Below are positions 6,095-39,329 of a DNA stretch of 42,788 nucleotides, piece after piece (the stretch's first letter is position 1; every line of letters begins with the position of its first letter). Both the position numbers and the translations under genes were made by a program. The notes under the pieces were generated by a model. The model was not told the DNA's origin and searched no databases. It was given only the letters and a program-made list of their open reading frames with translations. This DNA is from Candidatus Nanopelagicales bacterium. Its GTDB lineage: Bacteria; Actinomycetota; Actinomycetes; S36-B12. Where the stretch lies: the NCBI GenBank assembly GCA_032117355.1, contig JAULZL010000153.1, positions 1-42,788 on the forward strand, read 5' to 3'.

Positions 6095-6234
6095 GATTGA
6101 ACTGTACGCAACAAGGTGCCCACGTGACTGAAACCCGCACAGCCCCCTTCGGCAAGTCTGAGGATGGTCCTGACGAGATGAGCCGGTTAGAGGAGTCGAT
6201 CCGGCGAGTAAGTACGCTGCGGCGACATCAGTTG

Positions 6235-6888
6235 ATGGACAGGGACGCACCCGCGACCTGGAGCGATGGTGGAAGGACGATCGTGCAAGCAGCCAGTAAG
6301 TGGGCCGGACTAGCGATGCTCGCAACAATGCCGCTGGCCGCATGCGCCGCCGAAGGCCCGGCGCGATCAGCCGCACCTGAGTCGGCTGCGGTCAGTGGTG
6401 AGGCGACGCAGCCGACGGACGGTCCTGCGGCTGAAGAAGAGCTTCTCACGGCTCAGTCGGTCAGCGGCACTCAGCCCAAGAATATTCAGGTTTGCGTGAC
6501 CAACCGATTTGACCGCGCGATCTCGATCAACAATCGCGAGGGCACGAGAACACTCGCCGTGGGCGAGGAGATATGCAGTGAGTCCGGCTACGGTGAGAAC
6601 ATCGGGTCCAGTGTCGTCGTGAGCCCCAAGCCCACATCCGAAACTCGCATCGACGTTTCTATCCGCTCAACTTGGCCGACAGCGTACCTACGTGCCTGCT
6701 GGGGCATACCCATCTGCCTTCAGAATCAGCCGACGGGATCCACCAGCCTCGAGCAGGGAGATTCCCGCTGGCTCGCTCGAGGAGACCTGCAGCTGAACAT
6801 CACGCGAACCAAAGATGAGTCCCCGCGTCGCAACGAGAATTGGCCCATCGCTCACGTGAACATCGACGTATCCGCACCCAAGAAGTAG
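6235..6888 (+). CDS. secreted lipoprotein, paralog of 1379..1969
   Basis: The signal KWAGLAMLATMPLAACAAEG has lipobox LAAC. The blocks QVCVTNRFDRAISIN / GEEICSESG / IPICLQNQ / LQLNITR...WPIAHVNIDV line up with VCLVNKTTLNASVVF / TQLCGEG / KMCLSKGFQ / VQMNVIR...WKEFEVVF in the other gene. The start could be the ATG at 6235 or the GTG at 6283. Confidence 0.65.
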   Translation: MDRDAPATWSDGGRTIVQAASKWAGLAMLATMPLAACAAEGPARSAAPESAAVSGEATQPTDGPAAEEELLTAQSVSGTQPKNIQVCVTNRFDRAISINNREGTRTLAVGEEICSESGYGENIGSSVVVSPKPTSETRIDVSIRSTWPTAYLRACWGIPICLQNQPTGSTSLEQGDSRWLARGDLQLNITRTKDESPRRNENWPIAHVNIDVSAPKK

Positions 6889-36901: not shown

Positions 36902-36956
36902 CTTCGGGCGGGCCACACCGCGTCTAGACCGAGGCGGCAACTCAGGGGTCGAGCAG

Positions 36957-36977
36957 TTCGAGGCCGAGACCCTCGAA
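36957..36977. terminator. possible bidirectional stem-loop between convergent genes
   Basis: The element ttcgagg-ccgagac-cctcgaa forms a 7-bp stem with a 7-nt loop. It is followed by a weak T-containing tract, gtcacgtgtgtt. Stability was not calculated. Confidence 0.25.
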
Positions 36978-36978
36978 G

Positions 36979-37242
36979 TCACGTGTGTTGCGAGTGGCCT
37001 AGGTCGCACGGGTTGTCTACATGTTCCTCACCGGTACGAGCCGGAATGCTGAGTTGTTCCCCCGCAAGGGCGTCGCGCATCCCTAGGAGGATGTCGGCGA
37101 GGCCGCGCACACTCGGCGACGAGACCGCATCGATGAGAATGGTCCGCACCTCGGCTTCCATGGGGCGTCCGTGCGTCGCCGCACGCACTTGGAGTCAGTC
37201 TCGGACGTGGTCATCGAGCCCCCGGATCCTCAACTTAGCCAT
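36979..37242 (-). pseudogene. ribbon-helix-helix (FitA/VapB-like) antitoxin gene interrupted by an in-frame TGA; no toxin gene follows
   Basis: My translation reads MAKLRIRGLDDHVRD-TGA-LQVRAATHGRPMEAEVRTILIDAV...GEQLSIPARTGEE. The same frame continues on both sides of the stop at 37195..37197. The pattern matches MxxLxIRNLDDxVxxRLrxRAAxHGRSMEAExRxIL. Confidence 0.6.
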
Positions 37243-37465
37243 GTCATGCTCCTGGGAGTTGTCTGCATTGCGGTCTATGCAGACAGGCCAAACCGCGGCG
37301 CACGTAGACATCACCGCGAAGAAGGTAAGCCCTTCCAGCACTGGCCTGCCGACCTGAACCACCCAGCACCGACTTCGCCATGGCATCCGCTCTCTCGCTC
37401 AGCTATTGCTCGCCACACATTGGTGGTGCCGCCTGTCAACGTCAATGGGCATACCGGACGGACGC

Positions 37466-38023
37466 TCAGGACTCGTGTTCGTTGTCGCCGTATCCGAAGA
37501 CATGAAGGCTGACAATGTCAATCTCCCGACGTGGGTCACCGAAGAAGGCCGCCAAGCGATTGGTGACGCGCTTGAACGGCCGCTCGCGAGGAGTCCCCTG
37601 TGGCGTCCAATTGGCGTTCGGAACGATCAGGAACAGATGCTGGGCATCAGGTGAAATGTGAGCCTTCCAAAGGTCCTTCAAGTCGTGGTTATTGTTCACC
37701 GTTCCTCCGCGCTCAACCTCGGCCAGCACACCTCGCCCAGAATCCATCCGGTAGAAGAAGTCGGGCCGGGCAGAAGTAACGAAGCCATCCTCGGGCGTCA
37801 GGATCACCTCCTCCTCAAACCCGAGTCGATCACGGAGAAGTACGGCGACGATCGACTGAATCACACTGCTTTGCGCACCATGGACATGAGCGGCCCCGAT
37901 TTCCTCATCGTGAGCGGTCAGGTGGCCAACAAGTTGTTCAGCCAGGAGGTCAACGGCGAGCAGCTCGAGACCTTCTTCAGAGGTCACGCTCGACCGCACG
38001 AATCGCGCGAACTGAACCCCCAC
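37466..38023 (-). CDS. hypothetical protein, possible PD-(D/E)xK-like nuclease fold
   Basis: The composition is ordinary, while the opposite-strand ORF is poor. The sequence RPDFFY...(15 aa)...LAEVERGGTVNNNHDLKDLWKA...LFLIVPN loosely fits a PD...ExK-type layout. I recognise no family. Confidence 0.5.
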   Translation of the reverse strand: MGVQFARFVRSSVTSEEGLELLAVDLLAEQLVGHLTAHDEEIGAAHVHGAQSSVIQSIVAVLLRDRLGFEEEVILTPEDGFVTSARPDFFYRMDSGRGVLAEVERGGTVNNNHDLKDLWKAHISPDAQHLFLIVPNANWTPQGTPRERPFKRVTNRLAAFFGDPRREIDIVSLHVFGYGDNEHES

Positions 38024-38190
38024 GGTTCGCAGCTTCGCAGCTAGAAAGGCAAGAAGCTAGCCGGAACTGGTCCCACCTCGAACCGGAGCCTGACACTAAG
38101 GGAATCCAGTCCCGAGGCACCGCATTGAGTAGGTGGACTCGGGGTCCAATCTTCTGAGCCGTCAGATTTCGAGCCCCAGCTTCCCGTAAC

Positions 38191-38658
38191 TCAGTTCACT
38201 GTGACGGACTCGGGCCACACCTGCCGCAGATGATCAATGCCGAGAACTTGGCAGAGGATCCAGACGTCCTGCACGTCACGGTCGTATCTCCCCGCTGGGA
38301 CCTTCATGGCCAGCAGACGCTTCGGCGATGCGATGTTCACGCTCAGACCGGGCCAGGAGAAGGCTTCAATGCGATCGTGATCGAACTCCCGGGGCAGCAA
38401 GGGCAGCACCCGGTTACTCAGCCAATCCGGTGCAAGATCACGGTGCTCGTCGGCCATCCGTCGAGCGACCTCATCGATGGCCTCCATGGGCTGCCCGACG
38501 GCGTCGATGTCGCGCGTGACGCGCATCCGGTCGTAGGCAAGGGCCATCGCCGTGCCGCCGACGACGTAGAGCTCGGCTTCCAGTCCGTCCGCATGGAGAC
38601 GGTGCGCAAGTTCACCGAGCAGGGACACGATGCGCTCACGGTCGAACAGGCCGTTCAT
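38191..38658 (-). CDS. minimal nucleotidyltransferase-fold protein (MNT/AbiEii-like)
   Basis: The sequence ELYVVGGTAMALAY...TRDIDAV carries the GG[ST]-x(n)-DxD Pol-beta-type NTase signature. The protein is 155 aa. Its start overlaps the upstream XRE gene stop by 4 nt. Confidence 0.68.
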   Translation of the reverse strand: MNGLFDRERIVSLLGELAHRLHADGLEAELYVVGGTAMALAYDRMRVTRDIDAVGQPMEAIDEVARRMADEHRDLAPDWLSNRVLPLLPREFDHDRIEAFSWPGLSVNIASPKRLLAMKVPAGRYDRDVQDVWILCQVLGIDHLRQVWPESVTVN

Positions 38659-39299
38659 GCGGACGCGAGGAGCTGGCGACCCAGCATTACCCCTCGCACC
38701 CGAAAAGCGGACGGACTATCCCACAGGACGAGTGCTCGAAGTGACTCGACATCACCGGCGGCCCCGACCCACCAGGTGTGGTCCAGATAGCGACCGGGTT
38801 GACGGGTCCAGGATGGGGTGCGGTCGAGCCCAGAGCGACGGCACAACTCGACCGCGAGGGCTGCGATCAGTGCATCCCATCGTCTTGAGCCGGTGCTGCC
38901 CGGGGAGGCAAGGAAGAATCCCCGATCCTCCTTAGCCTCGAGGCGGGCGAAGTCATCCGACGCCTGGATGACATGGCACAGCATGTCGACATCCCGCTGC
39001 TTCCGGCGAAGGTCGGCGCGAAGGTCGGCGGTCGTGCTGGCCAGAGTTCCCGGCCACCCGTGGGCATACGCCGATGACATCGGCAGGTCGGCAAAAGCCG
39101 CGATTCGCTCACCCAGGTCGCGGCCAGCCTGCAGGCGGCCCCGCTCATAGGCGCTGACGTTTGCCCGACTCGTGCCGAGGAGCCCGGCGGCTTGCACCTG
39201 TGTGAGACCGAGTCGAGACCTCGTTCGGGCAAGGGCTCCCGTCACGGTCACCCCTGGAGTATTTCTGACTTGTTGAGACCTATATGTCTTGCGGATCAC
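38655..39299 (-). CDS. XRE-family helix-turn-helix protein with uncharacterised C-terminal domain
   Basis: The sequence RSRLGLTQVQAAGLLGTSRANVSAYERGR is a Cro/C1-type HTH. The true start may be the GTG at 39251 or at 39245. Confidence 0.72.
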   Translation of the reverse strand: MIRKTYRSQQVRNTPGVTVTGALARTRSRLGLTQVQAAGLLGTSRANVSAYERGRLQAGRDLGERIAAFADLPMSSAYAHGWPGTLASTTADLRADLRRKQRDVDMLCHVIQASDDFARLEAKEDRGFFLASPGSTGSRRWDALIAALAVELCRRSGLDRTPSWTRQPGRYLDHTWWVGAAGDVESLRALVLWDSPSAFRVRGVMLGRQLLASA

Positions 39300-39329
39300 A
39301 GCCGCCGCGAATCACGTGCCACGCCCGCA

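Follow-up and report, generated by a model that had tools for sequence, protein, structure and literature searches.

Do adjacent genes that lie on one strand, in an insertion between two conserved metabolic genes, form a single defence system, or are they unrelated pieces that share a site? This question is raised by a stretch of DNA from a Candidatus Nanopelagicales bacterium (assembly GCA_032117355.1, contig JAULZL010000153.1; 42,788 nt), which was analysed as a whole and is referred to here as the window. Between its sulfatase gene and metB, the window carries an accessory islet that encodes a protein with an XRE-type helix-turn-helix (HTH), a minimal nucleotidyltransferase (NTase) and a protein of 185 aa. 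The original prediction, made from the sequence alone, considered these three genes as a compact, atypical toxin-antitoxin (TA) or defence module, possibly with a nuclease as effector. Our analysis indicates that the islet is probably a mosaic, in which a TA-like pair, an autonomous nuclease of the BamHI lineage and the remnant of a VapBC pair came together at an intergenic hot spot, and not one three-gene system.

The islet between the sulfatase gene and metB

The case for separate modules begins with their distribution. Of 41 related genomes, 14 encode the NTase; as many as four copies occur in a single genome, and the window's own genome has three. The nuclease gene is found in three of the 41 besides the window's own, and none of the three carries the NTase. 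Equally, the 150 direct neighbours of nuclease homologs at 80 other loci belong to 122 Pfam families without a recurrent neighbour or a recurrent methyltransferase; the most frequent family, DUF3566, accounts for eight of the 150, followed by NERD with five. The XRE-type partner is bound to the NTase in a different manner, as each of the 16 loci inspected (10 in relatives, two own-genome paralogs and four near-identical contigs) has a homolog of the partner immediately ahead of the NTase gene. Of the predicted nuclease effector, the fold was confirmed by Foldseek matches to BamHI, but its role as an effector of the pair was not, because all three other carriers lack the NTase. The separate distributions and the changing neighbours of the nuclease also contradict a three-gene system.

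The islet itself is a genuine insertion, and its bounds (Table 1) could be set because the site is empty in relatives. In a genome of the same genus (G001), the convergent sulfatase and metB genes have stop codons that are only 32 nt apart, and the two genes also adjoin in G015, G010 and G004. Metagenomic contigs with parts of the same islet show 87-91% nucleotide identity. Two of them, L019 and L023, have the gene order metB-XRE-NTase; a third, L022, starts inside the NTase gene and continues with the 185-aa gene, a ribbon-helix-helix (RHH) gene, a PIN gene and the sulfatase. In the window, all three open reading frames (ORFs) are on the minus strand and encode 214, 155 and 185 aa as originally described, with a 4-nt overlap between the XRE and NTase genes (38655-38658) and a 167-nt gap ahead of the 185-aa gene (38024-38190). 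An excess of A/T-ending codons, noted by eye in the original prediction, was found in part: the G+C content at third codon positions (GC3) is lowered in the 185-aa gene (0.66) and in the XRE gene (0.69), but it is 0.78 in the NTase gene, and with 0.76-0.81 in the flanking genes and a genome median of ~0.75 the shift is mild overall.

The third piece of the islet is, as judged from alignment with L022, a VapBC pair with a deleted toxin. A decayed antitoxin next to the three genes had already been recognised, and the adjoining 69-aa ORF indeed corresponds to a fragment of a FitA-like RHH protein, with 78% nucleotide identity to the region of an intact 56-aa RHH gene in L022. In that contig, an intact RHH gene (56 aa) and an intact PIN gene (141 aa) lie between the nuclease gene and the sulfatase (L022:1433-2025). 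The segment 1582-1941 of L022, which covers ~360 nt and thus most of the PIN gene, has no counterpart in the window.

Some further observations concern the insertion site. The sulfatase/metB junction of another relative (L122, G006:C1:2417600-2420500) holds a different insert of 2.5 kb, which encodes a membrane protein and a SulP-type permease, as read from the translations and not from a family scan, so that the content of this site differs between relatives. A direct repeat of 11 nt, CGGGCCACACC, occurs without mismatch at the islet edge (36909-36919) and exactly at the NTase deletion junction (38211-38221); about one such chance match is expected in 2.6 kb, and the repeat was given no weight. 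A scan for promoter and terminator consensus sequences revealed nothing that exceeded shuffled controls. A phage origin was rejected, with no IMG/VR match for the NTase, a single one for the nuclease and none in PHROGs for either enzyme.

Table 1. Features of the islet, with positions in the window
Feature	Coordinates	Strand	Details
Accessory islet	36902..39329	none	2,428 nt; insert between convergent sulfatase and metB
PIN (VapC) toxin, 3' stump	36924..37007	-	~84 nt; L022 1942-2025 aligns to 37007-36924
FitA-like RHH (VapB-type) antitoxin remnant	36979..37242	-	Pfam FitA-like_RHH, E 2e-7; 69-aa ORF
Stand-alone nuclease gene of BamHI/OkrAI fold, intact	37466..38023	-	185 aa; AlphaFold2 (AF2) and Foldseek
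DUF6036 'mini-MenT' NTase, putative toxin, damaged copy	38191..38658	-	155 aa; Pfam and motifs I-IV
NTase deletion junction	38211..38217	none	L019/L023 homology stops at 38211/38215; L022 homology resumes at 38217
Partner gene, putative antitoxin	38655..39251	-	GTG 39251, 198 aa; alternative start 39299 (38655..39299, 214 aa)
Leader of the pair, AT-rich, candidate promoter/operator	39252..39329	-	78 nt; alignment with L019, L020 and L023

The nucleotidyltransferase and its partner

The NTase belongs to a family that has already been catalogued. It passes the Pfam cut-offs of DUF6036 (PF19502; 37.7 bits, cut-off 23.6) and of AbiEii (32.5 bits, cut-off 22.5), and the NTases of relatives score 29.6-42 bits with DUF6036. 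The only other Pfam match is DUF2204, and there is none in NCBIfam. Homologs on plasmids are already called 'DUF6036 family nucleotidyltransferase' by PGAP. Thus, the initial description of a half-size AbiEii with a partner that is not AbiEi is correct with respect to the partner, but the enzyme is not an orphan oddity. A literature search for AbiEii together with XRE returned nothing that describes such a pair, and when the PDB was searched by sequence, neither the individual islet proteins nor the family profile of the nuclease had matches above chance level.

Following the motif definitions for AbiEii and MenT of Dy et al. (PMC3985639), all four motifs can be assigned. The predicted minimal NTase signature is present as motif I (V33-G34-G35) and, after a 14-residue spacer, motif II (T48-R49-D50-I51-D52), which includes the family-specific Arg. 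The alignment shows no variation at G34, G35, T48 and D50 and almost none at D52 and R46; the pattern ..[ST][KR]DxD is present in 111 of 120 homologs, nearly always as R-x-T-[RK]-D-x-D. Motif III comprises L115-L116-A117-M118-K119 and motif IV R127-D128-V-Q-D131, with invariant K119, D128 and D131. The loop R46-x-T48-R49-D50 parallels R76, S78, K79 and D80 of MenT3 and S67/D69 of MenT4. The Ser in this loop is the auto-phosphorylation site exploited by MenA antitoxins (PMC7450476, PMC11375011), and MenT3 adds pyrimidines to tRNA 3' ends, which blocks translation (PMC7450476).

The partner contains the predicted XRE-type HTH, followed by a C-terminal domain without a known family. HTH_31 matches residues 23-70 (E 9.6e-8), and Xre-like-HTH matches as well (domain at ~19-70 in the 214-aa reading). 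Translation most likely starts at GTG 39251, because in close relatives the longer frame is interrupted by a 14-nt indel and the genes are called with 198 aa; this later start, like the truncation of the NTase described below, had not been remarked before. In the leader, the motif ATATAGGTCTCA at 39285-39274 is present as a single copy and in L019/L020 as a tandem direct repeat, which accounts for the 14-nt difference, and we infer from this arrangement a candidate operator. The AF2 model of the partner (predicted local distance difference test, pLDDT, 91.7) shows the HTH and then an all-alpha C-terminal domain of ~140 aa. For this domain, no Pfam match was obtained even at E <= 10, and none in NCBIfam or PADLOC. 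When the model was compared with PDB and BFVD by Foldseek, the HTH alone was matched and the C-terminal domain was not placed; the 50 PDB matches listed include no AbiEi chain. The partner gene is intact and has a ratio of nonsynonymous to synonymous substitution rates (dN/dS) of 0.15-0.22.

It is the C-terminal domain that is common to the partners of all NTase homologs, including those that lack the HTH. One own-genome paralog of the partner, on contig C373, is without an HTH, and on plasmids of Mycobacterium intracellulare and Rhodococcus 'hypothetical proteins' without an HTH precede the DUF6036 genes and match the profile of the C-terminal domain with 96-97.5% probability. That this domain is kept even in the absence of the HTH points to a protein-protein coupling rather than to simple regulation.

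The pair also spreads like a cassette. The NTase is present on 27 actinobacterial plasmids, and on a Mycobacterium plasmid Xre-RES and PIN toxin genes surround the pair. Among relatives with genomes of complete quality, G015 (L124:2464-7001) has the closest intact XRE/DUF6036 pair, which lies directly after smpB and is followed by a PIN-domain gene and, ~1 kb beyond, by a gene that resembles tyrosine integrases. Such a layout points to a possible island at ssrA/smpB. A patchy spread, multiple copies within a genome and the presence on plasmids in the company of TA genes fit a candidate TA family, and by analogy the pair would be a variant of the NTase TA kind under the existing name DUF6036. 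The original view of a compact, atypical TA-like module is therefore strengthened by the conserved coupling of the two genes, their patchy multi-copy distribution on chromosomes and plasmids, and the AbiEii/MenT motifs. In the mechanism that we propose, the upstream protein would repress the operon through its XRE HTH, while its all-alpha C-terminal domain would neutralise the NTase. The NTase, by analogy with MenT, might add nucleotides to tRNA 3' ends and thereby stall translation.

The pair of the window is in decay: its NTase gene is damaged and its partner gene is intact. Whereas 118 of 120 NTase homologs have 172-182 aa, the window protein has 155 aa. In comparison to close relatives, ~320 nt are missing: the NTase gene lacks its final ~26 codons and the spacer ~225 nt, and the frame ends in six unrelated residues. 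L022 retains the native 3' end and spacer, which shows that the native NTase-nuclease spacer measured ~390 nt before the deletion. In addition, the window NTase alone carries R121P, a Pro at K119+2, beside the Lys of motif III, where 117 of 120 homologs (97%) have Arg. The NTase of L022 has a different lesion, an in-frame internal deletion of 246 nt (L022:1-253) that is flanked by an 11-nt microhomology and may be either genuine or an error of the Logan assembly. The lesions in the window may be recent or tolerated, because the remaining codons (residues 1-150) still have a dN/dS of 0.17-0.19. The NTase was hit twice, in the window and in L022, while the partner remained under selection, and VapC was deleted too, which fits the NTase being the toxin of the pair.

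The 185-aa nuclease

The nuclease is the more original element of the islet. Its AF2 model (pLDDT 91.4) matches BamHI in the PDB (1bhm_A; Foldseek E 2.3e-5, probability 1.0), OkrAI (3odh_B; template modelling score, TM, 0.60) and also BstYI, although Pfam, NCBIfam, PADLOC and PHROGs contain no match. The nuclease-like layout that had been described holds, with RPD (86-88), EVER (102-105) and WK (119-120) invariant or nearly so in the family. All of 42 diverse homologs in an alignment share E104, and E72, D88 and E102 vary very little. Apart from BamHI and its isoschizomers, BtsCI is the only enzyme for which a Glu in the last catalytic position has been reported (PMC3025578). A dN/dS of 0.062 in comparison to L022 indicates strong purifying selection.

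The residues for DNA recognition show no evident correspondence to those of BamHI. In place of the Asn at +3 and the Arg at +9 after the last Glu that serve GGATCC recognition, the window protein has Gly and His, and a conserved N111-N112 is located at +7/+8, at the start of a helix. The Asp-Arg loop has no counterpart in a conserved Asp-Arg pair ahead of the helix 149-158. Longer homologs have N-terminal extensions (P0339, P0276), of which one matches Mrr_N weakly, at 27.1 bits and thus below the cut-off, and another carries ankyrin repeats; several homologs of 290-330 aa have no recognisable N-terminal domain.

The family is large and is concentrated in one class. A word-indexed search returned 972 matches, the family comprises 254 clusters at 50% identity, and the representative genomes of 292 species carry a member. 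The 80 genomes listed are nearly all Actinomycetes of many genera, with 57-75% identity. A plasmid search gave no match. In ~12 loci, among them L058, L059, L061, L062, L064, L077 and L089, which come mostly from Nocardioides, the nuclease gene lies just downstream of gyrA; together with DUF3566 as the most frequent neighbour, this suggests a core, origin-proximal position rather than an island. Across more than 80 loci, nucleotide similarity does not extend beyond the stop codon, and upstream of the gene it reaches ~40 nt at most; it is thus confined to the ORF, and no ends of a mobile element were found around it.

Several individual loci deserve mention. In the Isoptericola halotolerans chromosome (L065:562-6558), the nuclease homolog directly follows vsr, in an island that encodes, according to the translations, a DUF262/GmrSD-like protein, a restriction endonuclease (REase)-like protein, a C5 methyltransferase (with a PF00145 match), a second REase-like protein and Vsr. 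In Cellulomonas, the nuclease is near an Eco57I/D12 system and an insertion sequence. One contig of an uncultured actinomycete carries two copies ~3 kb apart (L035:2995-3365 and 6166-6536).

The islet contains no methyltransferase, and two nuclease carrier genomes, one of them a single-contig chromosome, are without the four major families of DNA methyltransferases (PF01555, PF02086, PF00145 and PF02384). The window's own genome has three DNA methyltransferase genes, all on other contigs. An intact active site, the lack of a protecting methylase and strong conservation together imply that the nuclease would have to spare unmodified host DNA, and this favours a role in modification-dependent restriction. 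Such a role is the most likely one, a function in repair is less likely, and a self-propagating nuclease gene is possible. With more reserve, as a tentative reading that we would not put at even chances, the protein may represent an undescribed solitary family of the BamHI lineage, which has given up its partnership with a methyltransferase and is either modification-dependent (type IV or IIM-like) or free-standing and self-propagating. A solitary family would explain the strong conservation, the mobility of the ORF alone into unrelated intergenic sites and the existence of carriers without a methyltransferase.

Alternative explanations and known systems

Four other explanations were weighed. 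That the islet is one defence system, with the XRE protein as regulator, the NTase as sensor or signalling enzyme and the 185-aa nuclease as effector, is highly improbable. The genes are adjacent and on the same strand, the order of NTase and then nuclease recurs in the closest relative, L022, and defence-type neighbourhoods were seen for both kinds of gene. However, within the 41 genomes the nuclease occurs without the NTase in its three other carriers and the NTase without the nuclease in 13 other genomes. Furthermore, all 10 NTase loci have the partner and no nuclease within the 3 kb fetched, DUF6036 and AbiEii are absent from the 25 commonest families of the 150 nuclease neighbours, and the native spacer between NTase and nuclease is long. 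Within the pair, the roles could be reversed as in type VII, HEPN-MNT-like systems, so that the NTase would be an antitoxin that nucleotidylylates a toxic partner domain. Minimal NTases do serve as antitoxins in HEPN-MNT systems, and the C-terminal domain of the partner has no assigned function or solved relative. Yet the partner is encoded upstream and carries a DNA-binding HTH typical of antitoxins, it has no HEPN family match (Rx4-6H motif) and no His among its invariant or nearly invariant residues, and the NTase has, with motifs III and IV and the motif II Arg, features specific to AbiEii/MenT. Decay also argues the other way, as the NTase gene is deleted or truncated in two lineages while the window partner is intact and selected (the L022 partner lies off the contig), and reversed roles are therefore very unlikely.

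It is likewise unlikely that there is no TA system at all and that an XRE regulator accompanies a small-molecule or housekeeping NTase, such as an antibiotic NTase of the ANT(2'')/Lnu size class. Some resistance NTases have 160-180 aa and thus share the size of this family, and the toxicity of the NTase is argued by analogy. Against this stand the lack of an NCBIfam match, in a library that we assume to include models of resistance NTases, the restriction of Pfam matches to AbiEii, DUF6036 and DUF2204, the retention of the partner C-terminal domain where the HTH is absent, and the patchy, multi-copy distribution with its TA-rich plasmid context. For the nuclease, a classical type II restriction enzyme with a cognate methyltransferase elsewhere in the genome would agree with BamHI, OkrAI and BstYI as top fold matches, the complete catalytic tetrad, the three methyltransferase genes on other contigs and the Isoptericola homolog after vsr in a restriction-modification island. 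This explanation is nevertheless unlikely, given the two carriers without the four Pfam families named above, the lack of a recurrent methyltransferase among the 150 neighbours, and a level of identity across genera and a dN/dS (0.06) that are unusual for fast-diverging type II REases. Moreover, neither GGATCC nor GATC is avoided.

The mosaic of a TA-like pair, a solitary nuclease and a VapBC remnant also has to face several points that weigh against parts of it. On the side of the NTase, the AbiEii profile is covered solely at positions 4-74 of 238, and a full-text literature search for DUF6036 gave no paper, so that toxicity, target and neutralisation are argued by analogy. The selection that still acts on the codons of the truncated gene stands against its decay, and the truncated enzyme could still be active; both NTase deletions are known from metagenome assemblies. 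On the side of the nuclease, the equivalence of the catalytic residues rests on their spacing and on the fold match, and the DNA-recognition residues of BamHI are not evidently kept. In the window's own genome, the observed/expected ratios are 1.09 for GGATCC and 0.96 for GATC, and neither an avoided palindrome nor a strongly avoided hexamer indicates a target.

If the interpretation of the pair as a TA system holds, it would represent a widespread branch of MenT/AbiEii whose catalytic unit is the smallest to date and whose partner domain has no known relative. It would also offer a compact system for studying how NTase toxins are neutralised, including the question whether the invariant Thr acts as an auto-phosphorylation switch as in MenT1 and MenT3. 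The window NTase would mainly be useful as a natural attenuated allele (R121P and the C-terminal deletion), and its locus may illustrate toxin-first TA decay at an integration hot spot. If the nuclease cuts modified DNA, its family would be a new source of modification-dependent enzymes and, if this is true, also an example of a type II fold that has been re-used for another purpose.

Each of the three modules has a known counterpart. VapBC is found as an intact RHH and PIN pair at the same place in L022, and the window has an RHH fragment and a PIN stump. The nuclease resembles BamHI and OkrAI (PDB 1BHM, 3ODH) in its fold (TM 0.54-0.60), in its size (OkrAI has 194 aa) and in the spacing of E72/D88/E102/E104, which corresponds to E71/D86/E99/E101 of OkrAI (PMC3025578) and to E77/D94/E111/E113 of BamHI. 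In contrast to these enzymes, it has no detectable sequence similarity to them, no adjacent methyltransferase and a high conservation across many actinomycete genera. With regard to the pair, MenT and AbiEii are two-lobed enzymes of ~240-300 aa, whereas the family enzyme has 177-181 aa, and 155 aa here, and its match to the AbiEii profile is limited to the N-terminal third. The partner, unlike AbiEi (a COG5340 winged HTH with its C-terminal domain) or MenA1, combines an XRE HTH, or none, with an unrelated all-alpha domain. Compared with PF19502 (DUF6036), the window copy is truncated and the obligatory partner domain lies outside Pfam. At the same time, the organisation is that of MenA/MenT and AbiEi/AbiEii (DUF1814; PMC7450476, PMC11375011, PMC3985639), i.e. 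bicistronic with a DNA-binding partner upstream. With MenT and AbiEii, the NTase shares pol-beta motifs I and II, including the Arg that marks the family and a long spacer (14 residues), the Lys of motif III in its hydrophobic context and the +DxxD of motif IV; with MenT, it also shares a Ser or Thr at position -2 from the first catalytic Asp (T48 in the window NTase, S78 in MenT3 and S67 in MenT4).

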